A stretch of DNA of 64,000 nucleotides from Escherichia phage 241. The first letter of the stretch is position 1. Each line of letters opens with the position of its first letter. The translations under genes and the position numbers were made by a program. Of the stretch, positions 7,845-62,540 are shown one piece after another. The notes beneath the pieces were generated by a model, which made no database searches, was not told the origin of the DNA, and saw only the letters and a program-made list of their open reading frames with translations. The DNA is taken from sequence record OR924452; one strand, written 5' to 3'.

Positions 7845-7896
7845 ATAATGTTGAAAGGTGGGCGTAAAGCCCACCAAACCAATAGAGGATAAAGAT

Positions 7897-8145
7897 ATGC
7901 GTGGAATGAAAGTACAGGGGCACGCATCCATGTTGAGAAGCAGTTCTTGTCCAGGCGCGATCATTTGTACTGATCATGCTGCAGGTATGGCTGCATTGCA
8001 AGCCCGTCAACGCAACGAAACCCGTGAAGCCACCATTGTTGAACAATCAAACCAGATATCGAATCTGGAGGCGACGATCAAAATGATGGCTGAAAAGTTG
8101 GGGATAGAAATCCCCGAAGGAGGTCAGAATGGCGACGCAAGCTGA
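7897..8145 (+). CDS. hypothetical protein (predicted coiled-coil)
   Basis: ATG at 7897 preceded by GAGGA; ORF track start at 7858 is GTG inside a hairpin. Confidence 0.4.
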   Translation: MRGMKVQGHASMLRSSSCPGAIICTDHAAGMAALQARQRNETREATIVEQSNQISNLEATIKMMAEKLGIEIPEGGQNGDAS

Positions 8146-9450: not shown

Positions 9451-9481
9451 TTATCAATTCCTCAAAAGAATTAATGATTGA

Positions 9482-9489
9482 CTAAATAC
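9482..9489 (+). promoter_or_regulatory. late-promoter-like motif CTAAATAC
   Basis: About 22 nt upstream of ATG 9512; followed by CTTCAAAATTGAG, also seen before the sheath gene. Confidence 0.5.
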
Positions 9490-9511
9490 CTTCAAAATTG
9501 AGGGTAAAGTC

Positions 9512-10153
9512 ATGGCTACTTCGAAATATTTCAATTATACAGCACACCAAGGTACTCAGAAATTAATTGACGACTTGGTGGTCGAGATGATACAACTACG
9601 TGGGATTGACGTCAAGTATATTCCACGTTCCATCGTTGAAAAATACCCAATTTTAAACGAGGCTGAACATAAATTCGACCAGGCGTTCGATATCGAAGTA
9701 TACATGCAAGATTACCAAGGCTTTAACACCCAAATGTGGGAGAAGTTTGGCGGTATTCAATTACAAGATGAAGTGACGTTCACCATTGCTCGTCGCCGTT
9801 TTTCAGAAGTGATTGGTAATGGGCCAGGACTTGAGCAGATGCCTCAAGAAGGTGATTTGATATACCTCCCAATGGCGAACAAGATATTCAAAGTGAATAA
9901 CCCGAATAACGACGAAGAATTTATGCAATTCGGTAAATGGTACACATATTCCTTACCGTGCACGTTGTTCCAATATGGTAATGAAGATTTTGATACTGGT
10001 GTATCTGAAATTGACGACATCGATAAACGTTTACAAGATCTAGACGGCGATGGTGTCTACAAAGATGCCAGTCTACAGACAGATAACCAATTTGCGGACG
10101 AAATAGAGAAAGATCTTTCGCCCAATAAAATGAAGATAGACTTCGGGGAATAA
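9512..10153 (+). CDS. neck protein, T4 gp14-like
   Basis: Position and size in conserved 13-14-15 order. Confidence 0.55.
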   Translation: MATSKYFNYTAHQGTQKLIDDLVVEMIQLRGIDVKYIPRSIVEKYPILNEAEHKFDQAFDIEVYMQDYQGFNTQMWEKFGGIQLQDEVTFTIARRRFSEVIGNGPGLEQMPQEGDLIYLPMANKIFKVNNPNNDEEFMQFGKWYTYSLPCTLFQYGNEDFDTGVSEIDDIDKRLQDLDGDGVYKDASLQTDNQFADEIEKDLSPNKMKIDFGE

Positions 10154-15732: not shown

Positions 15733-16191
15733 ATGATATACGCATACAAAATTGAAATGGTTTGTAATGGAAAGGTCTACATCGGTGTGACCAATGACCC
15801 ACAACGAAGATATGATCAGCATTTTGCGAATGCCTTTCATCATGGAGTCCAAAGTGAATTGTATGACGCCATGCGTAAGTATGGAACATCTGGATTTACT
15901 TTCGTTGTAATTGCTCAGACCGATGAAGTCCATAAATGGGAATTAGAGAAGCAACTCATCGCTCAATATAATTCTTATGAGATGGGTTACAACATGAATA
16001 AAGGCGGTAATGATGGAAGTCATATGCTGGGTAAAACTGCAGCAAAATTGACATCCACAGGTGAACACATTGGTCTTGTTTCTCTCATAGATCCCCGTTG
16101 GGAATTGTGTGAAATCGAACCTGTTTCAAGTAATGTTCACCATGGTTTCGATCTTTCTTCTATGAAGATTAAAAGATTGACGACTAATTAG
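15733..16191 (+). CDS. GIY-YIG homing endonuclease (free-standing)
   Basis: N-terminal IYAYKIEMVCNGKVYIGVTNDPQRRYDQH matches GIY-x10-YIG with conserved Arg/His; inserted between sheath and tube genes. Confidence 0.7.
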   Translation: MIYAYKIEMVCNGKVYIGVTNDPQRRYDQHFANAFHHGVQSELYDAMRKYGTSGFTFVVIAQTDEVHKWELEKQLIAQYNSYEMGYNMNKGGNDGSHMLGKTAAKLTSTGEHIGLVSLIDPRWELCEIEPVSSNVHHGFDLSSMKIKRLTTN

Positions 16192-16755: not shown

Positions 16756-16822
16756 TGTCCTCGGTGCTGGGGGAATCATATTCCCCCTCACTAATTACAA
16801 GAAAATGTTGAGGACTTAGATC

Positions 16823-19050: not shown

Positions 19051-19719
19051 ATGATGAAACTGTTGCGTGAGATCACAGCGATAGGGAAGGATCTTCAAAT
19101 CGGTGAGGCCACAACCTCAACTGGTGGGAAGGCCATGTTCATCGAAGGTCCGTTTGTGATGTGTAACCAAGTCAACCGTAACGGGCGTAACTATGATCTA
19201 CAGAAAGTGGGTATTCCTGCTGTCGAAGCATACGACAAAGAGTATATCCAAGATCGTCGCGCAATCGGTGAAGTCACACATCCTGACTATCCTTTCCCTA
19301 ATTTAGTGGAAGCTGCGCTCAAAACCGAATCCCTTCGCTGGGAAGGCACTAATGCCATCGGTCGGGCGAGAATTTTAAACACACCAAAAGGCCAAATCAT
19401 TCGTGCATTGGCCGAAGCAGACTTCAATCTGGCCGTATCTACTCGTGGCCTGGGTGAGACTAAGTCGGTAAGCGGTTATGATGATGTTCAGCCTGGCTTT
19501 ATGCTTACCGCCGTTGACGCAGTTGACCGTCCTTCTGGACAAGTTTGTTATGTTAAGGCTGTGAGTGAATCTGTTGAATGGCAGCTGGACGAGGCTTCGG
19601 GTATTTGGATGCCTCGTGATGTTAAAGGGAAAGTTGTAGACCAGTTGGTGAAAGCCAATATCCAGGTTGAAGACGATTTCCTGCGCCGCCTTGATGCAGC
19701 ATTGAATCATCTGGGCTGA
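19051..19719 (+). CDS. prohead core protease, T4 gp21-like
   Basis: IGEVTHP, IGRARILN and VSTRGLGE match T4 gp21 GELNHP, YGRARVIEG, VSSRGLGS. Confidence 0.85.
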   Translation: MMKLLREITAIGKDLQIGEATTSTGGKAMFIEGPFVMCNQVNRNGRNYDLQKVGIPAVEAYDKEYIQDRRAIGEVTHPDYPFPNLVEAALKTESLRWEGTNAIGRARILNTPKGQIIRALAEADFNLAVSTRGLGETKSVSGYDDVQPGFMLTAVDAVDRPSGQVCYVKAVSESVEWQLDEASGIWMPRDVKGKVVDQLVKANIQVEDDFLRRLDAALNHLG

Positions 19720-19730
19720 ATTTCAGCTCA

Positions 19731-19738
19731 CTAAATAC
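19731..19738 (+). promoter_or_regulatory. late-promoter-like motif CTAAATAC
   Basis: About 27 nt upstream of ATG 19766. Confidence 0.45.
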
Positions 19739-19765: not shown

Positions 19766-20605
19766 ATGAAACCTGAATTGCAAAATCTGTTTGAAGGCGT
19801 TAACGGCATCAGCCCAGATTTCCTGGATAAAGTATCCAATTTGCTGGAATCGAAAGTTGAAGCGGCTCGTCTGAAAGCTATCCAAGAAACCGAAGCAGCT
19901 GGCAACGTCGAGCGCCTGAATCTGGTAGAATCTCACCAGAAAGAAATCGCCGACCTGAAAGAAAATTTCATTCTGCAATTGGCTGGGAAAGTTGACTCAT
20001 TCCTCAACGCGGTGGTTGAAGAATGGGCTAACAAAAATGCCCCAGCTATTGACGCTCAGATCAAAACTGAAGCTGCTGAACGCTTCCTCACTGGTTTCTC
20101 CAACGTGCTGAAAGAAGCAGGTGTGAGTTTCGCTACTGACCCAGACGGTCAGATTGCCGCCCTCACCAGTCGCCTTGCTGAAGCAGAACAACGCGCCAAC
20201 ATGGCTAATACAGAGTTGAGCCAACTCAAAGAAAGCGAGACTAAACGCCAGCGCACCGACGTAATTGATCGCATTTGTGAAGGTATGGTTGACACCAAGA
20301 AAGACACTGTTGTCAACCTGCTGGAAGGTATTGAATTCCAGACCGAGTCTGAATTCGAATCGCGTGTTCGCACCTTCCGTAATCTGGTAGAAGGTAAAGA
20401 TGACTTCTCTGACAAAGTCGGTAAAGACAATGAAAAGGGTAAGCCAGATGGCGACAAGGCTGAAAAAGACATCAAAGAAGGTAAGAAACAGAAAAAAGAA
20501 GGTGATGTTGTTGACGACGATAAAGACGACGACGACAGAGACGAAGTTGGCAAAGAAGTCAACGAAGCCGTCCGTCGCCAGATCAGCGCCATTCTGAACG
20601 GCTAA
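19766..20605 (+). CDS. prohead scaffolding protein, T4 gp22-like
   Basis: Acidic, alanine/glutamate-rich, coiled-coil-like protein with poly-Asp tail; between protease and major capsid genes. Confidence 0.7.
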   Translation: MKPELQNLFEGVNGISPDFLDKVSNLLESKVEAARLKAIQETEAAGNVERLNLVESHQKEIADLKENFILQLAGKVDSFLNAVVEEWANKNAPAIDAQIKTEAAERFLTGFSNVLKEAGVSFATDPDGQIAALTSRLAEAEQRANMANTELSQLKESETKRQRTDVIDRICEGMVDTKKDTVVNLLEGIEFQTESEFESRVRTFRNLVEGKDDFSDKVGKDNEKGKPDGDKAEKDIKEGKKQKKEGDVVDDDKDDDDRDEVGKEVNEAVRRQISAILNG

Positions 20606-25509: not shown

Positions 25510-25540
25510 TTATAAATACCCCCAAAATTGGGGGTATTTT

Positions 25541-26269
25541 ATGAACGCACAAATCTACGATGTCCTTTCCTCTGGTAACGCATTTAGCAACCCGCTTCCG
25601 TCCCTCTCCGGTCCCTCACAGGATTTAATCACCAGTGGTAGTACCAATATACCATTGATAACTGCCAACGCGACTCCGGAAATGCAGTTGGCTATGTCAG
25701 CAGGTGGATTAACACCAGATAAACTTACAGCAGCCACAAACATGTATAGCTCTGCCAACACGGGGATAACGACACTGAACACATATGGCGACCAGAGCAT
25801 AAATGAAGCGTATTCAAGAATTGGGACTTCCGTTTCATATAAATCAGGTTTGAAAAGTATATCACGGGAACCAAACAATTGTGACCTGATCAACAAAGCA
25901 TTCGGTGTTGTTCAGGATCTAGGCCGCCAATGGTTAAACGCTATGGAAGGCGCTCTCCAGACTGTGACTAACAAGATATCGGAATTGTATGACATGATTA
26001 TGGAAGGTGCCTCAGAAGGTATGGCAAAACTACAGCAATTGGCTGCTGAAGTAACAGGACATATCAATGAGGCAATAACCGCCGTCAATGGAGTTATAAA
26101 CGATATCACCGATGGGATAGCTGCAGAACTTGCTCATATTGAAAGTATGATCAAAGAATGTCTAAACTTCTCTTTTGCGAATGTTCTTGGAGAATGGGCC
26201 AAAGATCTCTGTGCTGGAGGCGTTATTGATAAAATAGGGACTCCAGAATTAAAAGAGTCCCTGAAATAA
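25541..26269 (+). CDS. hypothetical protein (242 aa), possibly late/structural
   Basis: Preceded by TATAAATA (25511-25518) adjacent to a CCCCC-AAAATT-GGGGG hairpin. Confidence 0.5.
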   Translation: MNAQIYDVLSSGNAFSNPLPSLSGPSQDLITSGSTNIPLITANATPEMQLAMSAGGLTPDKLTAATNMYSSANTGITTLNTYGDQSINEAYSRIGTSVSYKSGLKSISREPNNCDLINKAFGVVQDLGRQWLNAMEGALQTVTNKISELYDMIMEGASEGMAKLQQLAAEVTGHINEAITAVNGVINDITDGIAAELAHIESMIKECLNFSFANVLGEWAKDLCAGGVIDKIGTPELKESLK

Positions 26270-27945: not shown

Positions 27946-28691
27946 TGGTTTCTCTACAGGCTTTGCGCAAACTTAATGACTTTGAAAATCGTCATCATAC
28001 ATTTCAGCAATATTCCTTGCCGTTTAAGGAACTGACTTGCGTAACTACCGAAAATGGTCGTCACTATGTTTCTCCCACTGGAGTCAAACTAACTTCAGTG
28101 ACGACCATGTTAGGGCGTACTGGTGACCACACATGGTTAGAAGCCTGGCGGGACAAGTTGGGGCATGAAGCTGCTGATATAGAAACACATCGTTGCGCAG
28201 ACCGTGGGGAAAAACTTCATTTGGCTTGTGAGTTGTATCTCAAAAACAGACCAATGAAGGAAGTTCTGGAAGCTGCAGGGGAATACGTGTTTATGTTCAA
28301 ACAGGTTTTCCCCTACCTTAACAAAATGAGCAAGATATATGCACAAGAGATTCCATTATATAGCGAAGTCCTGGGTCTTGCTGGTCGTGTTGACCTTATC
28401 GGGGTTTACGAAGGAATTCCAAGCATAATCGATTTCAAAACATCCAACACCCTGAAAACTCGGAGCATGATAGAAGATTACAGCATTCAACTATGCCTGT
28501 ACTCAGTCATGTTTCAACAGATGTTTAATGTTAAGATCGAACGTTTGGTCAATATTATATCTAATGAAAATTCTCTTGTCCCGACTATAATCGAATTTAA
28601 TCGAAAAGACGTTATTTCTAAAATGTTTGATCGTGTTCGCCTGTATCATAAAATGGATAAAGAACAGAACGGGATCTGGGCGGATCGCTAA
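27945..28691 (+). CDS. PD-(D/E)xK family nuclease (Cas4/RecB-like fold)
   Basis: GRVDLIG...IIDFKTS matches the D...(D/E)xK core; ATG 27945 overlaps uvsY stop (TAATG). Confidence 0.5.
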   Translation: MVSLQALRKLNDFENRHHTFQQYSLPFKELTCVTTENGRHYVSPTGVKLTSVTTMLGRTGDHTWLEAWRDKLGHEAADIETHRCADRGEKLHLACELYLKNRPMKEVLEAAGEYVFMFKQVFPYLNKMSKIYAQEIPLYSEVLGLAGRVDLIGVYEGIPSIIDFKTSNTLKTRSMIEDYSIQLCLYSVMFQQMFNVKIERLVNIISNENSLVPTIIEFNRKDVISKMFDRVRLYHKMDKEQNGIWADR

Positions 28692-28695
28692 ATAC
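28688..28695 (+). promoter_or_regulatory. late-promoter-like motif CTAAATAC
   Basis: About 25 nt upstream of uvsW ATG 28720 (uvsW is a late gene in T4). Confidence 0.45.
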
Positions 28696-28719
28696 TCCAT
28701 AATATTGGGGGAATTAGTG

Positions 28720-30225
28720 ATGTCAGAAATTCAAATAATCAAAGTTAACGAAGTGCGCATGCGAATCTTGGCGGAGGACTATATCCGCGAAGAACTCAAT
28801 GATTACTTCAAATTTGAAGATCCTAATTTCCAACCGAATCCCTTCAGTAAATGGGATGGCGTGGTACGCTTGTTCACAAAGAGTTCTGGTCTTATAGACA
28901 TCGGTCTGTTGTTTGAGGTGTTTAAGTTCTGTAAGATGAATGGTTACACCATCAAATTAGATCCCGCCTTAAAATATATCCAAGATATACCAGACGAAGA
29001 GATACATACATTTATCAATTCCCTGAACGCTGTTTACCGTGATGAAAACAAGCAATACCAAATCGCAACAGTGCGGGACTATCAATTCGACTCAGTGGCC
29101 ACAGCAATACGCCAATCCAGATGCGTGCTAGAAGCGGCTACGAGCGCGGGTAAATCGTTTATTTTGTACATCATGGCGCGTTACTACAGGCAACGCAGAG
29201 AGGCACTGGAAAGCAATCTCAAGACGTTGATCGTTGTACCTTCCATTCACTTGGTGACTCAGTTGTATGACAACTTTGAGGAATACAGCCATGGCACAAA
29301 TTGGAATACCATGATGAATGTCCAGATGATATGTGAAGGCGCAACAAAGGACATATTCAAGCCCATAGTCATTTCTACATGGCAGGGTATTCAGAATCAG
29401 CCCAAAGAATGGTTCCATCAATTTGGGGATATTGTTGTCGACGAAGTACACACATCTAAATCTGAAAAGCTATCTTATATCCTGAACAACTGCATTAATG
29501 CTGACCAAAGATTGGGAGTAACCGGAACCCTCGCGAATACAAAGGTTGCAGGGTTGCAGGTCGTTGCCCATTTTGGAGCATACCATAAAATTATTACAGC
29601 ACGTGATTTAATAAATCTTGGTTATGCCACAGATATCCATGTCAACATGATTGAAGTCATACATCCCATGGCGGATTGTATAGAAATGCATGGTGCTGAG
29701 TATCAAAAGGAAATAGAATTCCTCATAGCGAATGAACGTCGAAACGAGTTAATAGCCAGAATGGCATTGTCTTTGAAAGGTAACGTGGCCGTTATGTTCG
29801 AACGCATTGACGCCCATATGATGATTGTTTATGAAATGCTTTCAGCCGTTAAGAAAAACGTATTTGTCATTAACGGCGAAGTTAAGACAGAAGTTCGTAA
29901 ACAAATTCAGGCAGCGATGGAAGAGGGTGAAGATATAACACTGCTGGCATCTTATGGGACCATGCAACAGGGAGTGTCGATCAAAAAACTTCATCATTTG
30001 ATATTGGCACACCCGAGTAAATCCTATATCCGTGTCATACAGACTTTAGGGCGTCTCATGCGCCAGCACTCTTCAAAGGATGTCGCCAAGATCTGGGATT
30101 TAGTAGACAACTTGCGTTACAATGGATTCTCGTACAACCATGCTCTCAGACATTCGCATGAGAGATATAAATTTTATCTTATGGAGCGACACCCTGTACA
30201 AATGAAGAAAGTGTCGCTCCAGTAA
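28720..30225 (+). CDS. uvsW: ATP-dependent DNA helicase UvsW
   Basis: EAATSAGKSF Walker A, IVVDEVH Walker B; VISTWQGIQNQPKEWFHQFG matches T4 UvsW VVGTWQTVVKQPKEWFSQFG; 501 aa from ATG 28720. Confidence 0.9.
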   Translation: MSEIQIIKVNEVRMRILAEDYIREELNDYFKFEDPNFQPNPFSKWDGVVRLFTKSSGLIDIGLLFEVFKFCKMNGYTIKLDPALKYIQDIPDEEIHTFINSLNAVYRDENKQYQIATVRDYQFDSVATAIRQSRCVLEAATSAGKSFILYIMARYYRQRREALESNLKTLIVVPSIHLVTQLYDNFEEYSHGTNWNTMMNVQMICEGATKDIFKPIVISTWQGIQNQPKEWFHQFGDIVVDEVHTSKSEKLSYILNNCINADQRLGVTGTLANTKVAGLQVVAHFGAYHKIITARDLINLGYATDIHVNMIEVIHPMADCIEMHGAEYQKEIEFLIANERRNELIARMALSLKGNVAVMFERIDAHMMIVYEMLSAVKKNVFVINGEVKTEVRKQIQAAMEEGEDITLLASYGTMQQGVSIKKLHHLILAHPSKSYIRVIQTLGRLMRQHSSKDVAKIWDLVDNLRYNGFSYNHALRHSHERYKFYLMERHPVQMKKVSLQ

Positions 30226-30906: not shown

Positions 30907-31575
30907 ATGCAAGAGATCACTCTCTCTGAACGTACTTTACAACTGCTGGCCAACTTTGAAACCATTTGCCCTTCTATCGTTCTGGCACCTGGTAAAAAGC
31001 TGCGCACTGTTAACGACTCCAGCACCGTCATCGCTATCGCTGACATCGACGAAGACTTCCCGTTTGAATTCCCTATTTTGGATCTGACCAAACTTCTGGC
31101 CATTCAGCGTCTGCCTAGTTTCAAAGGCGGTAAAATCGAAATGTCGGAAGATCATATTTTACTGAAAGGTGAAAACTCGCAGCTGCAATTCTGGCGCTCA
31201 GCAAAAGAATTGACTGTCGTTCCTGCCGACAGCATTGATCTCCCGTCCGTTGAATTCGAAGCGACGGTCACTCCTGAAAAAATGAAAGAGCTGACCCGCG
31301 CCTGTTCTACTCTGGGACACAAAACTGTTCGTCTGGTTGCCAGCGGCGGTAAAACCCGTCTGGTCGGTACGACTACGACTATCGATAATTCCAACGATTA
31401 CACCGTTGAATTGGGTGAAACTGCTCTGGCTGATTTCGCTATGCCTGTCGACGTTGTTAACCTGAAAATGATCGAAGGCAACTATGTGATCCGCGCCTGT
31501 GCTGAAATGCAGCTTGTTAACTTCCAGTCGGCTGACGGCACCATCAACTACTACGTTGGCATGCAGCTGGATTAA
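30907..31575 (+). CDS. sliding clamp, T4 gp45-like
   Basis: 222 aa; N-terminal LQLLANFETICPSIVL resembles T4 gp45 TALLKNFATINSGIML; followed by clamp-loader genes. Confidence 0.85.
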   Translation: MQEITLSERTLQLLANFETICPSIVLAPGKKLRTVNDSSTVIAIADIDEDFPFEFPILDLTKLLAIQRLPSFKGGKIEMSEDHILLKGENSQLQFWRSAKELTVVPADSIDLPSVEFEATVTPEKMKELTRACSTLGHKTVRLVASGGKTRLVGTTTTIDNSNDYTVELGETALADFAMPVDVVNLKMIEGNYVIRACAEMQLVNFQSADGTINYYVGMQLD

Positions 31576-34446: not shown

Positions 34447-34468
34447 TATAAACCGTTATTCATTAAAC

Positions 34469-34497
34469 AACAGAGGCTATAATGGCCTCTGTTTTTG
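34469..34497 (+). terminator. rho-independent terminator
   Basis: CAGAGGC-TATAATG-GCCTCTG hairpin followed by TTTTTG. Confidence 0.6.
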
Positions 34498-34515
34498 TAT
34501 TCTAGAGAGGATACC

Positions 34516-39693: not shown

Positions 39694-39960
39694 TTCTTCA
39701 AAAGTCTTTCAAAATCAATAACGTCCGGCAAAATGCTGGGCGTTTCAATTAATAAGCCAAGGTATAATGGCCCAACTGAAAACGCGGGGGAATTTCTTTG
39801 TCCAAGCCATTCATTCGTTCCGGAGTTGATTCTCTAGACTCCCAGTTTAAGCCGAGCGAAGTTTTAATCCAACAAATTGAAACCAATCGTGAATTCATAG
39901 AACACATGTTGGCAAAGCCGGAAGGTGAAGCCGCTCAAACCACCAAAGAAGGTAATAACG

Positions 39961-52130: not shown

Positions 52131-52901
52131 ATGGGTATGAATTTTGTAGACAGGGGTGATAACGTCACCAAATATTTCACTGACGAAGATAATGATCGAG
52201 TTGTGGGGATATTGCGTGATTGGATCCCTGCTCGTAAAAAGGCATTAGCCGAAGGAACACCCCTACCAAGAATCCCCAATTACGTGGCCATGAATGTTCA
52301 GATGATAATCAAGAATATGAGTATGCGCTACAACTACCGTGATTATCCATATCGTGAAGACATGGTGAGTGAAGCGGTTGTGAACATCCTTCGTTACCTT
52401 CACACCTTTGACGTTAGCCATATCGGCAAGAAAGGAAAGATCAACTTCTTCTCTTGGGTGACTATGTGTGCCGATCGATCATTCGCCAAGAAACTCACGA
52501 GTGAAGAAGAACACAACTACATTAAATTGCGTTCCTTTGAAGAAGCAGGTGGGTTCGCAGCTTTATCGGATGACCCAGACTTCCAACAACAAACCTTCGT
52601 TGATAGCACTGGGATAACGATGGACTTTCGTGAACGCATCGGTAATTTCGAAAATAAGAAAGAAGCCCAGCGTGAAAAGGAACGCCAAAAGCAAACGGCT
52701 ATCAAAGAAGAGGAAAAGAATAAGAAAATCCCTCGCGGTATACTTCAATGTCTTACGAAGAGTGAAAATACCATTACCGCTGACGCCGAAGATAATTCAG
52801 ATAATGACTTCGGCTCTACTCAATTTAGTCTTGAAGATATAATGGACAGCCCCACATTGTTAGCCGAATCAGTTGGAGAAAAGAATAATGGCGATTGCTA
52901 A
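52131..52901 (+). CDS. late-transcription sigma factor, T4 gp55-like
   Basis: ILRDW, NILRYLHTFD and NFFSWVTMCADRSFAKKL parallel T4 gp55 IIDWKTEL, IKGLHNFD, AYITQACFNAFVQRIKKE; upstream of genes 47/46 as in T4. Confidence 0.6.
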   Translation: MGMNFVDRGDNVTKYFTDEDNDRVVGILRDWIPARKKALAEGTPLPRIPNYVAMNVQMIIKNMSMRYNYRDYPYREDMVSEAVVNILRYLHTFDVSHIGKKGKINFFSWVTMCADRSFAKKLTSEEEHNYIKLRSFEEAGGFAALSDDPDFQQQTFVDSTGITMDFRERIGNFENKKEAQREKERQKQTAIKEEEKNKKIPRGILQCLTKSENTITADAEDNSDNDFGSTQFSLEDIMDSPTLLAESVGEKNNGDC

Positions 52902-54005: not shown

Positions 54006-56339
54006 ATGAGCAACGTAGATCTATTATCAAAATTTGGTTCGCTGTTGAAAGAAGCGGACGCTCCTGTTATTGTTGAAGCACCATTTGAAATCCGTGGGGA
54101 TATTACTCACAAACTGACTTTCCATCGTGGTCGCGCTAAGAACTTTCGTTCTATCGGTAATGAATTCATGGAAATTGATTACCAACGCAATTCGGCAACC
54201 TTGGTTACATCCGATGACAATGGCGCTGGTAAATCCACCATGCTTGTCTGGCTGCTGTTCTTCGTTCTGTACAACGACACGTACAGCAAGAAAGAGAAGA
54301 AAGCCGGATTGGTTAACTCTCAAAACAAAAAGGAATGCGTGGGTGAAGTTGAGTTCTCAACTCGCGGTAGTGAATGGAAAGTCCGTCGGGGTATCAAACC
54401 AGATTTTGTAGAAGTTTATCAGATGGTGGAAGGAGAGTGGAAGCAAGTCGTGAACGATGCGGCCAAAGCTGATATGAACAAGTACATCGTGAATCTCATC
54501 GGCGTGGACCAGAAGATGTTCGAGAACTCTTTGGTTTTGGGCAAGGAGAAGTTTATTCCTTTCACAGAGATGTATACCGCTGACCGCCGCGCCATGGTTG
54601 AAACAATTTGGGACTTGGGTTTCTTCAGCCTGATGAATGAGGATGTTAAAGCATCTATCAAGGCGGTAACGAACGAACTCACGACGGTCACCAATGATTA
54701 CGCCTTTCATGATGTGAATCTAAAAGGCCAGCAAGCGCAGTTGGAACAGATCAATAATTCCAATGCGATGATTCAGCAACAATCTGCGGATATCCTTGTC
54801 CAAGAGAAGGAACGTCTGAATAGCCTGAATTCAGATATCGGCGCAGTGCAGGAACAACTGACAGAGTCCCGTGCTCAAGACTCTAAATTGGAATCAGAAT
54901 TATCAGAAGTCCGTAATCGCCTGAACGCTGAAATGAAGGTGGATATCGATGCCATCAATGACGAGTATTTTGCCAAAATTCAAGCGGTTCAGGATGAGGC
55001 TGATACCAAGGCTGAAGACTATGAACGTATCGAGGTGTCTGATGGCGAACGTTCATTACAAGAAATTCGGGAGAGAATGGCGGTAGTCGCGGAACGTAAA
55101 AATGATCTGGTCAGCCAACGGAATGCTAACCTGGATGAACTGAACAAAGCATTAGCGCGGCGTCAGCAGGGTGAGAACTTCCGTATCAAATTCGTAACAG
55201 AAATGGAAGGACATGAATCTGCCATCAAACGTTTCCACGATATGGGCACTTGCCCTACGTGTACGCAATTAGTGTCGGACGATACCAAATCACGCATTGA
55301 AAGTCAATATTATCCGCAAATCAGTGAACTGACTGACAAGATTCTTCAGGTTGACACAGCCCTAGAAGAAGTTAATTCCCTGATTGAGAATTACAACGTC
55401 AAAGATTCAGAATTATCTTCTCAGATTTCGGTTGTTGACAAAGAACTGGATGCTTTGCGCAATGAAATCCGAGAAGCGGAATCAGCGATTGCTGCATTAA
55501 AACGCGACATCCAAGGATTCTATGATGTGGCAGCTGTTGAGAAAACATCTTTACAGCGGGAACAACAGTCCAAAATTAACGATATCCTCAAGGCCGTAGA
55601 CACCCGTTACGAAGATATCACGACGTCAATCCGTCAAGCGCGTGAGCAGCTCTCTAAGAGCATCAACGACACGACTGATAAACTCACCAGCCTGAAATCA
55701 CGCCGTGCCCCTCTGGAGGCATCCATTGCCGATTTAGAGCGTAAATTGGCGGTTAAGCCGACACCAACTGACGCCCTGGAAGAAGAGATCGCTCGCATCA
55801 CGGCGTTAATGGAAGATCTGAATGCGCGGCGCGTAGAGTTGGATGAGAAATTGCAAGACCTGAACCATCTTCTGTTCTTCCTAAAAGATGATCAGACCAA
55901 GGCTCGAATTATCAGCCTGTATTTGCCTTTCCTCAATAGTAAAATAAACGAGTATCTTGAAGCACTCAATATGTTCTTGGATATTGCTGTTGATGACACA
56001 TTTGAAATCACCATGAGCGCTGCAGGCCGTAAAGGGCAAAGCATCTTCTCATTATCTACTGGTCAGCGTAGTCGCCTGAACCTGGCTGTGACATTAGCTT
56101 TACGCGATGTTGCAAACCTCAAGGCGTCAGTGCAATGTAACCTGTTTGTGTTAGATGAAATCCTTGAGAACATGAGTGAGCGCGGCGTACAAGAATCGGT
56201 TGAGATGCTGAAGCATAAATTTGGCGGGAACAATCTGTTCGTTATCAGTCAACGCGAGCAGGAATTCCAAGAGTATTTCCAACACAACATCCGTTATGGT
56301 CTGCGTAATGGTATGACTGAAGTGATTAAGAAGGATTGA
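54006..56339 (+). CDS. recombination ATPase, T4 gp46-like (Rad50/SbcC family)
   Basis: Walker A DDNGAGKST, long central coiled-coil, C-terminal FVLDE Walker B. Confidence 0.85.
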   Translation: MSNVDLLSKFGSLLKEADAPVIVEAPFEIRGDITHKLTFHRGRAKNFRSIGNEFMEIDYQRNSATLVTSDDNGAGKSTMLVWLLFFVLYNDTYSKKEKKAGLVNSQNKKECVGEVEFSTRGSEWKVRRGIKPDFVEVYQMVEGEWKQVVNDAAKADMNKYIVNLIGVDQKMFENSLVLGKEKFIPFTEMYTADRRAMVETIWDLGFFSLMNEDVKASIKAVTNELTTVTNDYAFHDVNLKGQQAQLEQINNSNAMIQQQSADILVQEKERLNSLNSDIGAVQEQLTESRAQDSKLESELSEVRNRLNAEMKVDIDAINDEYFAKIQAVQDEADTKAEDYERIEVSDGERSLQEIRERMAVVAERKNDLVSQRNANLDELNKALARRQQGENFRIKFVTEMEGHESAIKRFHDMGTCPTCTQLVSDDTKSRIESQYYPQISELTDKILQVDTALEEVNSLIENYNVKDSELSSQISVVDKELDALRNEIREAESAIAALKRDIQGFYDVAAVEKTSLQREQQSKINDILKAVDTRYEDITTSIRQAREQLSKSINDTTDKLTSLKSRRAPLEASIADLERKLAVKPTPTDALEEEIARITALMEDLNARRVELDEKLQDLNHLLFFLKDDQTKARIISLYLPFLNSKINEYLEALNMFLDIAVDDTFEITMSAAGRKGQSIFSLSTGQRSRLNLAVTLALRDVANLKASVQCNLFVLDEILENMSERGVQESVEMLKHKFGGNNLFVISQREQEFQEYFQHNIRYGLRNGMTEVIKKD

Positions 56340-56650: not shown

Positions 56651-56976
56651 AAGTCGTCCACTTCAAGAAGGAGCCATATGACGTCTACATTGGGCGGCCT
56701 GGCAAATGGGGTAATGACTTCGAAGTCAAAGACCATGGGCGCGGCGTTTGTATCGAGTTATTCGAAGACGATTTGTATGTGCGTCTGATTGAAGGGGAAA
56801 TCACTGAGGATGAACTCCTTGAACTGGACGGAAAGATTCTAGGGTGCTGGTGTAAACCACGCCCCTGCCACGGGGATGTTTACGTCAAAGTGATCGGTCG
56901 TATTAAACTATTCCGTAAGTTGGGTAAATCTTTTACTGAATATTTGAGACAAACATATGTCAGAAGAGAAAGATGA
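56647..56976 (+). CDS. DUF4326-like protein
   Basis: VYIGRPGKWGN and GCWCKPRPCHGDV match the DUF4326 signature; GTG start overlapping previous stop. Confidence 0.5.
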   Translation: MKVVHFKKEPYDVYIGRPGKWGNDFEVKDHGRGVCIELFEDDLYVRLIEGEITEDELLELDGKILGCWCKPRPCHGDVYVKVIGRIKLFRKLGKSFTEYLRQTYVRRER

Positions 56977-57241
56977 AATACAGATTGCTTGTGATATCGC
57001 TGTGGAATTATGGAATCAGCGAAATAAACATCATCAGGTAGCATTGACACCAAAACGTTACCTAGAGCAAGGTGGGTTGATCGTTGTTGACGCCGTCTTG
57101 GGTTTCAACAAGTACACAGATATGCAAATCCTCCAAGGGGATTTCATAGTGGCATCAAAATCAGCATGGGACGATCCTATGGAGTTTGTCTACGGCTGGT
57201 TAGAGTGTATTGAGGAATCATACCATCTGATCTACGAATAA
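56957..57241 (+). CDS. hypothetical protein (94 aa)
   Basis: ORF followed by hairpin. Confidence 0.45.
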   Translation: MSEEKDEIQIACDIAVELWNQRNKHHQVALTPKRYLEQGGLIVVDAVLGFNKYTDMQILQGDFIVASKSAWDDPMEFVYGWLECIEESYHLIYE

Positions 57242-57245
57242 GGTG

Positions 57246-57270
57246 AAGGGCACTAAATATCAAGTGCCCT
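57246..57270 (+). terminator. hairpin terminator enclosing a late-promoter-like motif
   Basis: AGGGCAC-TAAATATCAA-GTGCCCT followed by TTATCTTTT. Confidence 0.5.
57253..57260 (+). promoter_or_regulatory. late-promoter-like motif CTAAATAT
   Basis: Lies in the loop of the hairpin, about 75 nt upstream of ATG 57338. Confidence 0.4.
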
Positions 57271-57337
57271 TTATCTTTTAACCCTGTCAGGAGGCTCAAT
57301 CGAGCTGCAAGTCGACAAACACATAAGGAACGCCATC

Positions 57338-57955
57338 ATGACGATGACAACGTTGAAGGCCATGGCCTTGTCCGTGACCTTTACCATTGCCAGCGGGAGT
57401 GTGCACGCTTCCCAAAGTACCACCCAATGTGATTACGAATTTTCTGATCAGCAACTTTCAACTATGGCCACTGCCTATCACATAGGCAAACAGCAAGACC
57501 TTGGTTTCACCCTAGCCGCGATATCATGGAGGGAAAGCCGCGCCGGAGAAGATGTGGTATCCATGCGGAATAACCTGAAATCGGCTAATATGGGGGCATT
57601 CCAAAATCGAGTCCAAACCGTTGGGAAACGGGAGGGATGCAAAACACAGAAGTGTTACGCCAACGTGGCGATTAAATTGCTGGTCAATCAAGAGTACGCA
57701 GCCAATGCAGCCCTTGATGAAATGAATTTCTGGCTTGGGTATCATAACCAAAACATCCGCAAATCGCTCTCCTCTTACAATGCCGGTTTCAGTCGTAACC
57801 AAAAATCCAATTCATACGCTGCTGATGTCGTGAAGAAGGCTAAATATCTTCAACGATGTGTGTCTTTCAAAGGCATGGCAATAAACCCGAAGGTCGACCC
57901 AGGAGTGATCGCCATGAATAAGCGCACGATTGAGAAACTCAAGAGGACCCGATAA
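57338..57955 (+). CDS. lytic transglycosylase (SLT domain) with N-terminal signal sequence; endolysin candidate
   Basis: Signal-like MTMTTLKAMALSVTFTIASGSVHA; SLT motifs WRESRAG (catalytic Glu-Ser), SANMGAFQ, SSYNAGF. Confidence 0.65.
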   Translation: MTMTTLKAMALSVTFTIASGSVHASQSTTQCDYEFSDQQLSTMATAYHIGKQQDLGFTLAAISWRESRAGEDVVSMRNNLKSANMGAFQNRVQTVGKREGCKTQKCYANVAIKLLVNQEYAANAALDEMNFWLGYHNQNIRKSLSSYNAGFSRNQKSNSYAADVVKKAKYLQRCVSFKGMAINPKVDPGVIAMNKRTIEKLKRTR

Positions 57956-58593
57956 TGAATATCACTCCATCTCAGACCGGATACGAGCACTTAATGGTGT
58001 TTATTGCGATTCAGGGGGCAAAAGAAGGCATCATCAGTTCTGAATATTCTGGAACGATGCGCCTGGCTGATTATGTTGCTCCCGAAGCGTTTATCAAGAA
58101 ATGTGTCGACGCATGGTGCCTTTATGCTATCGGCACGTATCCTACTCCTCCGGCAGGTGAGCTACTGTTTACCGTTCCGACCCCAGCCGCTGGCGACACA
58201 GACGCGATCTTTGCTGATATGTTGGCCAAAGGTTATCTGGCATATGATAGTGCTCACAATGTCTATGACTTCTCGGCGTTGAATCGTATCTTCGGATACA
58301 CCATAACATCCGAAGCCAATATTCCCGACTATGGAATTCTGGCATGGGGTATTGACGGTCTCGGCGCAACATATGCGTCTTCTGATGTTGGTCCTGTATT
58401 GATTGACACAGGTGTGACAATGGAGCAATACATGTCACAATTCCCTCAGCATAATGTTACCGGAAGCGACATCATTATTGTCTATCCTGGTTCTAATGCG
58501 TTGTCCCGCCTGGTGGACGGCTGGAAGCCTCAGCTGAAGGACATCGTTGCTGGAATCAGATTTCACATCCCTGTCGTCAATCCCACACCTTAA
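57955..58593 (+). CDS. hypothetical protein (212 aa)
   Basis: ATG overlaps previous stop. Confidence 0.5.
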   Translation: MNITPSQTGYEHLMVFIAIQGAKEGIISSEYSGTMRLADYVAPEAFIKKCVDAWCLYAIGTYPTPPAGELLFTVPTPAAGDTDAIFADMLAKGYLAYDSAHNVYDFSALNRIFGYTITSEANIPDYGILAWGIDGLGATYASSDVGPVLIDTGVTMEQYMSQFPQHNVTGSDIIIVYPGSNALSRLVDGWKPQLKDIVAGIRFHIPVVNPTP

Positions 58594-59066: not shown

Positions 59067-59147
59067 TACGAATATGCGGGGGCTTGATGCCCCTTTCTTT
59101 TCGCTAATTAAGGAAAACCGCACCGATTTATTATCAGGAGAATTACA

Positions 59148-61532: not shown

Positions 61533-61540
61533 TCATCAAG

Positions 61541-61552
61541 CCCCTTCGGGGG
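61541..61552 (+). terminator. short hairpin
   Basis: CCCC-TTCG-GGGG immediately before the late-promoter-like motif. Confidence 0.35.
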
Positions 61553-61560
61553 CTAAATAC
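61553..61560 (+). promoter_or_regulatory. late-promoter-like motif CTAAATAC
   Basis: About 20 nt upstream of ATG 61582. Confidence 0.45.
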
Positions 61561-61581: not shown

Positions 61582-62130
61582 ATGATGAAACCGTTTATCG
61601 AATATTTTAAAGAACAAGCCCAGCAGCCGCAAACTCATGGCGGTATACAAGGCAAAAGTGTAACCATCACTAAACAAGCCGATGGAACACAATGGTGCTC
61701 CGGCGCTACCGTGACCCAGATCACTCCTGACAATCAGGCCGATGTCTATAATCTGGAATTGACTAATGGCAACACCATCAAAGTGAAGCTAACTCCAGAC
61801 CAGACCCACGGCATTACCCAAGGCCAAGAAGTTGTTGCCGTCCATGATGGTTTTGAATTTTTCTTCGGCAAGTCAGCTGACAAAGGTCAGGTTACTGAAG
61901 CGGAAGGCTGGCGTTTCGTCGGTGACCGTGGCGCTCATATTCTGATGTATGACGCAAAAGTTGGCGGTGCCTCCACTATCCTTCGCAGTCCAACAGATCG
62001 AACCAAATTTGTTGGTGGTCTCATCAACGGTAGAAAAATTTTGGGTAATTCCCCAGAAGAACTGGCGGCAAAATTAGGTCTTCCAAAAATTCCTGATAAT
62101 TTATTAAAATCGTTTTTTGGTAAAAAGTGA
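61582..62130 (+). CDS. hypothetical protein (182 aa) paralogous over a C-terminal module to the 794-aa protein
   Basis: ATG 61582 with AGGAGA RBS preferred over non-ATG start 61435; C-terminal SPEELAAKLGLPKIPDNLLKSFF. Confidence 0.5.
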   Translation: MMKPFIEYFKEQAQQPQTHGGIQGKSVTITKQADGTQWCSGATVTQITPDNQADVYNLELTNGNTIKVKLTPDQTHGITQGQEVVAVHDGFEFFFGKSADKGQVTEAEGWRFVGDRGAHILMYDAKVGGASTILRSPTDRTKFVGGLINGRKILGNSPEELAAKLGLPKIPDNLLKSFFGKK

Positions 62131-62148
62131 TTATAAAATACAATCCCC

Positions 62149-62156
62149 CTAAATAC
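62149..62156 (+). promoter_or_regulatory. late-promoter-like motif CTAAATAC inside hairpin
   Basis: CCCCCT-AAATACA-GGGGG hairpin with motif in the loop, 30 nt upstream of ATG 62187. Confidence 0.4.
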
Positions 62157-62186
62157 AGGGGGATTTTCTTTTTAGGGGTAAATATC

Positions 62187-62540
62187 ATGGTCAATGCGAG
62201 TATATTCATCAACCGTGGACTGCTTGCTATAGCCCACTCCCATGCCCTCCACTTCGTTACAACGTCCTATGCCAAGCACAAGGCACTCGGGGAGTTCTAC
62301 GGGGAACTGGAGGACTTGCTGGATACCTTCACAGAGGCATATATCGGCGCGGGTGGTGTATATGTCCCAGGGTTTGAGAATATTAAACTGTACAACCCAG
62401 ATCCTATATCGTATGTCAACAGTGTTGTTATCGACGTAAACGGAATTTATGGTCAATGCGACAGCCATCTTCAAAATACGCTTGATGAAATCAAAACTTT
62501 GTGCTATCAAACGATTTACAAACTGAAGCAATTGTCCTAA
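62187..62540 (+). CDS. hypothetical protein (118 aa)
   Basis: ATG 62187 downstream of motif. Confidence 0.45.
   Translation: MVNASIFINRGLLAIAHSHALHFVTTSYAKHKALGEFYGELEDLLDTFTEAYIGAGGVYVPGFENIKLYNPDPISYVNSVVIDVNGIYGQCDSHLQNTLDEIKTLCYQTIYKLKQLS

Follow-up and report, generated by a model that had tools for sequence, protein, structure and literature searches.

Putative late promoters in the loops of terminator-like hairpins of Escherichia phage 241

Phages are known to combine promoters with stem-loops in at least two ways. In the PeSL cassettes of the T4-like phages RB49/phi1, T4/PST and KVP40/nt-1, a promoter and a GC-rich stem-loop terminator are superimposed (Arbiol et al. 2010, PMC2839356; Comeau et al. 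2014, PMC4122927). The stem-loop of these cassettes lies mostly between the -35 and -10 elements or "overlapping the -10 box", both the promoter and the terminator activities were shown by lacZ fusions (PMC2839356), and the cassettes have been proposed to block the spill-over of upstream transcription into the late genes (PMC2839356; PMC4122927). The other precedent comes from the T4 genes e, soc, 49, I-TevI, I-TevII, I-TevIII and segB and from mobE of phage Aeh1, where a late promoter lying within a hairpin gates translation: the early read-through RNA folds and goes untranslated, while the late RNA, whose start lies beyond the 5' arm, is translated (PMC3014915, PMC2988022). Here we describe two elements, sites A and C, in a 64,000-nucleotide (nt) stretch of Escherichia phage 241 (sequence record OR924452; this whole stretch is called the window below), in each of which the heptamer CTAAATA sits at the apex of a GC-rich hairpin that is followed by a U-rich tract. 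With moderate confidence, we read them as intrinsic terminators whose enlarged loop would bear the -10-like box of a late promoter dependent on the phage sigma factor gp55.

The two elements and the boxes that they enclose are located as follows.

57240-57279, + strand: site A, terminator-like hairpin with an extended 15-bp stem (57240-57254 paired with 57263-57277)
57253-57259, + strand: CTAAATA at the apex of site A, its CT closing the 5' arm and its AAATA lying in the loop
62142-62165, + strand: site C, terminator-like hairpin AATCCCCCT / AAATAC / AGGGGGATT, followed by TTCTTTTT (62166-62173)
62149-62155, + strand: CTAAATA at the apex of site C, with the same geometry as at site A

An earlier note on this DNA had placed the motif in the loop of a GC-stem hairpin at 57246-57270 and at 62145-62162, and it is indeed found there, with the CT forming the end of the arm and AAATA in the loop. 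At site A the 5' arm is AAGGTGAAGGGCACT (57240-57254), with the core AAGGGCACT (57246-57254); the 8-nt loop is AAATATCA (57255-57262), the 3' arm is AGTGCCCTTTATCTT (57263-57277; core arm 57263-57271) and a T-rich tract occupies 57270-57279. The predicted minimum free energy of this fold is -22.6 kcal/mol (z = -6.7), and the stem begins at the stop codon (57239-57241) of the open reading frame (ORF) 56957-57241. Site C, with a loop of 6 nt, starts 12 nt past the stop codon of ORF 61582-62130 and is the best terminator-like match in a scan of the window. All the sequence features of intrinsic terminators are present in both hairpins, which probably act as such. Neither stem includes a ribosome-binding site: the Shine-Dalgarno (SD) sequence lies about 50 nt 3' of the hairpin at site A, and at 62174-62178, 9 nt 3' of the hairpin and outside its 3' arm, at site C. 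The annotators of phages Mooltan and Magnus labelled sites A and C "terminator", with no promoter label, and the authors of the Dickeya phage LIMEstone1 genome labelled the orthologs of A and C, along with that of a third site (B, described below), "putative late promoter", with no terminator label; it appears that nobody has joined the two annotations before.

By its sequence similarity, the window is a genome segment of a Kuttervirus (Ackermannviridae), that is, a ViI/CBA120-like phage. Its last 9 kb match Escherichia phage Sa157lw (97% identity), and the same region also matches many Salmonella, Escherichia, Klebsiella and Dickeya phages (Ackermannviridae, Kuttervirus). Nearly all of the window genes are on the + strand and only 6.9% of the sequence is non-coding. 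The raw number of CTAAATA copies in the window, 11 against 6.3 expected, is unremarkable. All 11 of them lie on the coding strand, and 12 of the 14 + strand copies of CTAA[AT]TA fall 15-90 nt 5' of a start codon, a zone that makes up 8.4% of the positions (binomial p = 1e-11). A de novo k-mer count put TAAATA/CTAAATA at the top of the upstream-enriched words of the window and did the same for LIMEstone1, a distant relative. The CTAATTA form has three + strand copies (16184-16190, 16791-16797 and 59104-59110), all of them 26-38 nt 5' of late gene starts; the genes that follow encode the tail tube, the portal and a 794-aa virion protein, and these sites are conserved in LIMEstone1. CTAATTA thus appears to be a second variant of the late box. 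The resulting consensus, CTAA(A/T)TA plus two copies of TATAAATA, matches the T4 late consensus at 6-7 of 8 positions and has no -35 element; at orthologous sites CTAAATA is swapped for the canonical TATAAATA, as at site B of LIMEstone1. The genes found 3' of boxes include those for the gp14 neck protein, sheath, tail tube, portal, scaffold and UvsW, and likewise those for the endolysin, the tailspikes and the LIMEstone1 virion proteins confirmed by mass spectrometry. A CTAAATAcCcc word has been reported as a "unique regulatory motif" of the family (PMC7283392), and at the time of the CBA120 paper the late box had not yet been identified (PMC3184105). CTAA(A/T)TA is very probably a late promoter element of the gp55 type.

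Two proteins on which such a promoter would depend are encoded in the window.

52131-52901, + strand: gp55-type late sigma factor (phrog_234, "late sigma transcription factor", E = 1e-53)
30907-31575: homolog of the gp45 sliding clamp (profile match, E = 5e-65)

In LIMEstone1, Magnus and Serratia phage Kevin the orthologs of 52131-52901 bear the annotation gp55, and the window protein is the presumed reader of the box. A phmmer search with this gp55 homolog against the PDB sequences matched no chain (T4 gp55 included, if it is in the set), so the homology rests on the PHROGs profile matches. A gp33 homolog is annotated in LIMEstone1 and also in the 97%-identical Sa157lw, where it lies outside the stretch that matches the window. 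With gp55 and gp45 in the window and gp33 in its relatives, a late transcription machinery of the T4 type is present.

The claim of the earlier note that the coupling of motif and hairpin recurs holds, in that all four of the sites that it listed are real and two of them have the box at the apex. Our census of the relations between motif and hairpin covered the window, the remainder of Sa157lw and 150 kb of LIMEstone1. A hairpin spanning the box with dG <= -8 was found at 2 of 23 late-box sites, where shuffles of the flanks gave an expectation of 0.06. LIMEstone1 is similar, with 2 apex hairpins of dG <= -8 at its 27 late-box sites against 0.07 expected from flank shuffles. The window holds 18 terminator-like hairpins on the + strand: 15 have loops of 3-5 nt and 3 have loops of at least 6 nt, 2 of which contain the box; the loops of the other terminators are typically UUCG or of the GNRA type. 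Since sites A and C resemble each other only in the 7-nt box, the design has arisen twice.

For the comparative analysis we used 21 IMG/VR loci encoding the protein downstream of site C, together with Magnus (Taipeivirus), LIMEstone1 and Serratia phage Kevin (Miltonvirus). Four genera keep the hairpin of site A, its U-tract and the 66-nt leader that follows, as seen in Kuttervirus, Limestonevirus, Agtrevirus-like and Taipeivirus loci. In the Taipeivirus loci the loop reads CTAATTAT, the second variant of the box, and the stem is kept by way of a G.U pair; we considered whether this loop represents a lost promoter, and rejected the idea because CTAATTA also precedes the tail tube, portal and 794-aa genes. 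Across 19 IMG/VR loci the element at site C is near-invariant despite their differing upstream flanks. Immediately 5' of it, a small gene like ORF079 of LIMEstone1 is present or absent according to lineage (window 62130-62142 against L002 10627-10880, and L008-L026). One locus, L016, serves as a natural experiment. There the upstream neighbour is divergently transcribed, so that there is nothing to terminate; the site C hairpin is absent and CTAAATAC is kept at the same distance from the ATG. As the box is retained without the hairpin, the two functions are separable, the box being for the downstream gene and the hairpin for the upstream unit. The junction of an indel abutting an invariant element, as seen at site C, is reminiscent of PeSL-mediated shuffling.

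How would such an element work? A polymerase arriving from upstream would transcribe both arms and the U-tract and then terminate. A polymerase carrying the phage late sigma factor would instead bind the box in duplex DNA and start about 6 nt downstream of it. The predicted starts, which use the T4 spacing of about one helical turn between box and start (PMC2988020) and are a matter of geometry only, fall at about 57265 for site A and 62161 for site C, within the 3' arm in each case; a late transcript starting inside the 3' arm would lack the 5' arm, and the terminator could not form in it. Site A would in this way keep the co-directional early/middle transcription of the gp47/gp46 operon out of the late genes, and the downstream genes would be made dependent on the late promoter alone. 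The box of site A would drive the gene 57338-57955, which resembles SLT (lytic transglycosylase) genes, and the structural gene 57955-58593. That of site C would serve the DUF5856 gene 62187-62540; mass spectrometry confirmed the LIMEstone1 ortholog of this gene, ORF078, as a virion protein.

At other boxes the neighbouring hairpin is of a quite different kind, in that it covers the downstream gene's ribosome-binding site.

25511-25543, + strand: TATAAATA (25511-25518) fused to a hairpin (25514-25539) with the SD sequence GGGGG (25530-25534) in its 3' arm
9479-9514, + strand: CTAAATA (9482-9488) in a two-helix structure (-14.3 kcal/mol, z = -5.4)
28684-28722, + strand: CTAAATA (28688-28694) in a two-helix structure (-15.0 kcal/mol, z = -4.9)

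The earlier note had a sequence at 25511-25534 abutting a hairpin. A copy of TATAAATA does lie next to a hairpin there, but it overlaps the 5' arm rather than abutting it, and the 3' arm is the SD sequence itself. This GC-rich hairpin (25514-25539; -17.8 kcal/mol, z = -3.6) is followed by a T-run (the whole being 25514-25542), the ATG is at 25541, and its own translation-initiation region ranks 1st of 24 in pairing. At the 9482 site, which precedes the gene for a gp14-like neck protein (9512-10153), the inner helix (9487-9494 / 9499-9506) masks the SD sequence GAGGG and the outer one (9479-9483 / 9508-9512) reaches the A of the AUG. At the 28688 site, which precedes the gene for the UvsW helicase (28720-30225), the outer helix (28684-28691 / 28714-28721) covers the AU of the AUG (28720-28722) and the inner one (28695-28699 / 28706-28710) covers the SD sequence GGGG. 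The common form of the design is ...TAAATA-CCCC...GGGG-TAT...ATG, and elsewhere in the family it is found at endolysin and tailspike genes and at an intron homing endonuclease. At motif-preceded genes, hairpins that sequester the SD sequence are seven- to eightfold enriched, with 5/21 against 8/219 of the other genes in one genome and 6/28 against 7/187 in the second (Fisher p = 0.0026 in each). The 12 nt that follow the box pair best with the initiation region of their own gene, at -5.9 kcal/mol as against -3.2 kcal/mol for those of other genes (permutation p = 2e-4 in each genome), and the arm pairs co-vary among the paralogous sites (CCCCC/GGGGG, CCTTCAA/TTGAGGG and CCTTCGCA/TGCGGAGG). In view of this pairing and co-variation, the C-run ("cCcc") of the published CTAAATAcCcc is best interpreted as belonging to an anti-Shine-Dalgarno arm and not to the promoter. 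By analogy, 25511, 9482 and 28688 are the design of T4 genes e, soc and I-TevI. Read-through RNA would fold and be translationally silent at these sites, and late RNA starting at the loop would be translated. On the same T4 spacing, their starts are predicted at about 25524, 9494 and 28700, where each would coincide with the final base of the 5' arm or the opening base of the loop. For 25524 it is the former when the 5' arm is taken as 11 bp and the latter when the stem is limited to its 8-bp core. None of the five predicted starts, those of sites A and C included, would precede the end of its 5' arm.

A third arrangement consists of hairpins that adjoin the box without enclosing it, and it can be set beside sites where a terminator and a box simply follow one another.

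61539-61554, + strand: site B, UUCG-tetraloop hairpin AGCCCC / TTCG / GGGGCT (AGCCCCUUCGGGGGCU), with no U-tract
19712-19730, + strand: hairpin TGGGCTGA / ATT / TCAGCTCA, spanning the upstream stop codon and with no U-tract, then CTAAATA (19731-19737)
16769-16787, + strand: hairpin GGGGGAAT / CAT / ATTCCCCC, with no U-tract, and CTAATTA (16791-16797) 3 nt later
59078-59102, + strand: canonical terminator GGGGGC / TTGAT / GCCCCT followed by TTCTTTTC, with CTAATTA (59104-59110) right after it
2915-2973, + strand: non-nested comparison, a terminator (2915-2940) and then CTAAATA (2967-2973), 33 nt before a 1612-aa structural gene (start 3006)

At site B the CTAAATA (61553-61559) overlaps the last 2 nt of the 3' arm, in an intergenic gap of 49 nt, and the downstream gene is 61582-62130. 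The description of a box directly following a terminator hairpin at 61541-61560 is therefore accurate as to position, apart from the 2-nt overlap, but without a U-tract the word terminator is doubtful there. The UUCG hairpin is conserved in four genera, with TATAAATA at the position of the box in LIMEstone1; the Taipeiviruses carry CTAATTA at both sites A and B. Candidate roles for 61539-61554 are those of an RNA stabiliser, a processing site or a weak terminator. The arrangement at 19712-19737 is conserved in LIMEstone1 and precedes the gene 19766-20605. The CTAATTA of 16791-16797 lies 26 nt 5' of the start of the portal gene (16823), and that of 59104-59110 lies 38 nt 5' of the start of the 794-aa gene (59148). 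Since the intergenic gaps are only 45-60 nt, abutment is to be expected from crowding, and the three abutting hairpins (61539-61554, 19712-19730 and 16769-16787) are probably just that. The earlier suggestion that a single element could both terminate upstream transcription and initiate late transcription thus survives as the best reading of what is seen at sites A and C, but it does not cover all four of the sites for which it was made: 25511 has the SD-masking design, and 61539-61554 merely abuts its box and has no U-tract.

Nesting is also seen, and more strongly, with the other promoter class of the family, the sigma70-like early promoters, which have TTCAAT-N14-TATAAT as their published motif and TTCAAT-N13/14-TATAAT as their form here.

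34459-34501, + strand: TTCATT (34459-34464), a 13-nt spacer and TATAAT (34478-34483) at the apex of the hairpin 34469-34493, then TTTGTATT
39722-39769, in the window: sigma70-like site whose -35 element, at 39744, overlaps the T-run of the preceding terminator
L029 19331-19380 and 26079-26130, and L030 16240-16290 (- strand): further sigma70-like sites of the family

The TATAAT is at the apex of a GC-rich hairpin in 3 of the 6 such sites per genome, against 0.01-0.03 expected, and several of the nested sites are followed by a T-run. One might go further and suppose that the Ackermannviridae use superimposed terminator/promoter cassettes of both promoter classes as punctuation in their long arrays of co-directional genes and that the nesting is mechanistically active, for example by handing a retained polymerase to the embedded promoter when the sigma factor that fits it has appeared. 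RNA polymerase reportedly stays on the DNA after intrinsic termination, as Kang et al. are said to have described in 2020. We regard this extension as improbable; if it were true, one and the same 30-bp stretch would, with rising gp55, change from "stop" into "stop and restart".

Several observations weigh against the proposal that sites A and C are terminators with a late promoter in the loop. There are only two apex late-box sites per genome, and under a generous, hand-calculated null that allows for the elevated intergenic frequency of the motif, the occupancy of the loops has p ~0.01. The fold of site C has a weak z-score (-1.4), because the C5/G5 runs also pair when they are shuffled. The gene upstream of site C is itself late, and the rationale of keeping early transcription out therefore fails there. 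T4 late promoters have an AT-rich melting segment 3' of the box (PMC2988020); here a GC-rich 3' arm takes its place, and by comparison with T4 this might weaken initiation. Site A is absent from Serratia phage Kevin, and in the same phage the hairpin of site B is kept and the CTAAATA is 18 nt 5' of it, so that the coupling is favoured rather than obligatory. No compensatory changes in stems A and C were seen across more than 20 near-invariant loci, and, given this near-invariance, the conservation may in part reflect shared descent. Finally, we found no transcript 5' or 3' end data in the literature on Ackermannviridae or Kuttervirus transcriptomics and start-site mapping; the promoter, the start site and the terminator are consequently all deduced from sequence, and the same applies to any benefit of nesting beyond compaction.

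What else could account for the arrangement? Perhaps the boxes and the hairpins are real and their overlap is a neutral compaction of gaps of 30-100 nt, with no regulatory consequence. The small non-coding share of the window (6.9%) fits such a crowding, as do the three abutting hairpins that lack a U-tract, the ordinary terminator-then-promoter spacing at 2915-2973 and 59078-59110, and the variation of the arrangement between lineages (in Kevin the box is 5' of hairpin B and site A is missing; L016 lacks the hairpin). However, a loop that is to hold a 7-nt box must be unusually large, and two unrelated elements share the design and have kept it over four genera while their flanks diverged. 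The sigma70-like promoters, moreover, are nested at 3 of 6 sites against 0.01 expected. Whatever its origin, nesting has a consequence, since the promoter's own transcripts lack the 5' arm. We consider pure crowding unlikely. The cassettes could also be chiefly PeSL-like recombination modules for the swapping of genes, and the upstream sequence of site C does differ by lineage, with the ORF079-like gene present or absent beside an invariant element. Sites A and C, however, have only the 7-nt box in common, which leaves no mutual homology to recombine, and no repeat family was seen; such a role, which is in any case compatible with the transcriptional reading, seems quite improbable as the main one.

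Two further explanations were considered. The loop could be a signal in the RNA, such as a site for protein binding or for an RNase on the stem, with the hairpins serving as stabilisers of mRNA 3' ends or as processing sites. The stable hairpins without a U-tract at 61539-61554, 19712-19730 and 16769-16787 do look more like stabilisers than terminators, and the UUCG hairpin of 61539-61554 is conserved in four genera. Against this, the window has about 10 further upstream copies of exactly this box that lack a hairpin, orthologs carry TATAAATA in place of the box, the box outlives the loss of the hairpin in L016, and an Rfam scan of the whole window gave no family match; we therefore hold an RNA-level signal to be very improbable. 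Early promoters of phage N4 form hairpins, and one can imagine that extrusion of a DNA hairpin or cruciform would likewise present the -10 box in single-stranded form and so activate the promoter. Both promoter classes of the family do have their -10 box at the apex of an inverted repeat, and melting of the GC-rich segment 3' of the box would be difficult without such extrusion. But the inverted repeat is absent at most of the late boxes, L016 presumably works without it, the U-tract that comes right behind the stems is in keeping with termination of RNA and not with extrusion of DNA, and the PeSL stem-loops were shown to act as transcription terminators (PMC2839356), all of which makes extrusion highly improbable in our view.

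A few observations lie beside this argument. Between terminator A and the SLT-like gene, the 66-nt leader (57272-57337) is near-invariant in the four genera, more so than the flanking coding sequences, and it varies only in the loop of a small hairpin (GGCUC-NNNN-GAGCU) and in a short spacer; folding of the alignment gave no compensatory pairs in the leader. The gene that follows, 57338-57955, has a weak match to the SLT domain (E = 2.7e-4, below the Pfam cut-off) and a match to a PHROG of unknown function. Several related genomes label it "RegB", a label that looks unreliable, and autoregulation by RegB as the reason for the conserved leader is unsupported, given that the match is to SLT and not to RegB. 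Within the coding sequence of this gene, 109 nt 5' of the structural gene 57955-58593, there is a further CTAAATA (57840-57846), which Kuttervirus, LIMEstone1, Magnus and Serratia phage Kevin all retain and which is a possible late promoter internal to the gene. At 7840-7875 of the window, CATAAATA shares bases with the stop codon of the 1612-aa gene; 9 nt later there begins a strong hairpin (GGTGGGC / GTAAA / GCCCACC, 7857-7875, -14.2 kcal/mol), which would sit in the 5' leader of a late transcript of ORF 7897-8145. A scan of IMG/VR for CCCC-N0-3-TATAAATA-N0-3-GGGG returned more than 120 matches, a number of the same order as a rough estimate of chance. In one 107-kb contig (L077, position 1792, - strand) CCCCTATAAATACAGGGG is followed by TTTTTT, and similar apex hairpins occur in unrelated contigs (L138, L063 and L093); the apex design may thus occur in other gp55-bearing phages. 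With regard to the annotation of LIMEstone1 (HE600015; L005-L007), several of its "terminator" features, for example 54223-54250 and 92858-92885, are some 25-30 nt off the actual hairpins (in one case the hairpin is actually at 54279-54253, on the - strand), and these look like coordinate errors of the deposited annotation.

The control of transcription in the Ackermannviridae is essentially unstudied, to the extent that a 2024 review of the family contains neither the word promoter nor the word terminator. The family includes ViI, CBA120 and many phages under development for use against Salmonella, E. coli O157, Klebsiella and Dickeya. If our reading is right, early-to-late boundaries in these genomes would be gated in two ways, either by termination with a nested restart or by masking of the ribosome site, and the PeSL idea of a superimposed promoter and terminator would be carried over to promoters of the late class and into a second phage family. 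For the engineering of such phages (reporter phages, tailspike swaps, genome reduction) it would mean that elements of about 30 bp have a dual function, and that cutting or duplicating them would alter read-through and late expression together. The box, the terminators and both precedents, PeSLs and the T4 late-promoter hairpins, were already known; what is new is the late box inside the loop of a terminator with a U-tract, in another phage family, along with the reinterpretation of "cCcc" and the CTAATTA variant.

It remains to set the elements against what they most resemble. Like canonical Rho-independent terminators, sites A and C have, just past a stop codon, a 9-15-bp stem rich in G and C together with a U-rich tract; they differ in their loops of 6-8 nt with a promoter-like box, those of the other terminators of the genome being typically 3-5 nt. 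Like the T4 late promoter (TATAAATA; Geiduschek and Kassavetis 2010, PMC2988020), they have an AT-rich box of 7-8 bp about one helical turn 5' of the putative start and no -35 element, but the sequence here is CTAA(A/T)TA and the downstream segment is often C-rich instead of AT-rich. The feature that defines the T4 e, soc and I-TevI hairpins, an SD sequence or AUG in the 3' arm, is present at 25511, 9482 and 28688 and absent at A and C. I-TevII, a geometric precedent found in a scan of the first 50 kb of T4 and with TATAAATA at the hairpin apex, has the SD site as its 3' arm. As the 3' arm at A and C is not a ribosome site and a U-tract follows it, the block there would be termination and not translational masking. 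With PeSLs they share an intergenic, superimposed design: a stem-loop terminator that overlaps or adjoins the -10 box, with the SD sequence and start codon at its 3' end, is found here as well, and the sigma70-like elements of the family match the PeSL architecture of the T4-like phages. Nevertheless, PeSLs come from the Straboviridae and the present elements from the Ackermannviridae; PeSLs have a strong early promoter of the sigma70 type with an AT-rich upstream region, whereas A and C have a gp55-type late box without a -35 element; and PeSLs form a repeated, recombination-active family of about 100 bp flanking ORFans in hyperplastic regions, whereas A and C are single, mutually unrelated and located in conserved regions of the genome.

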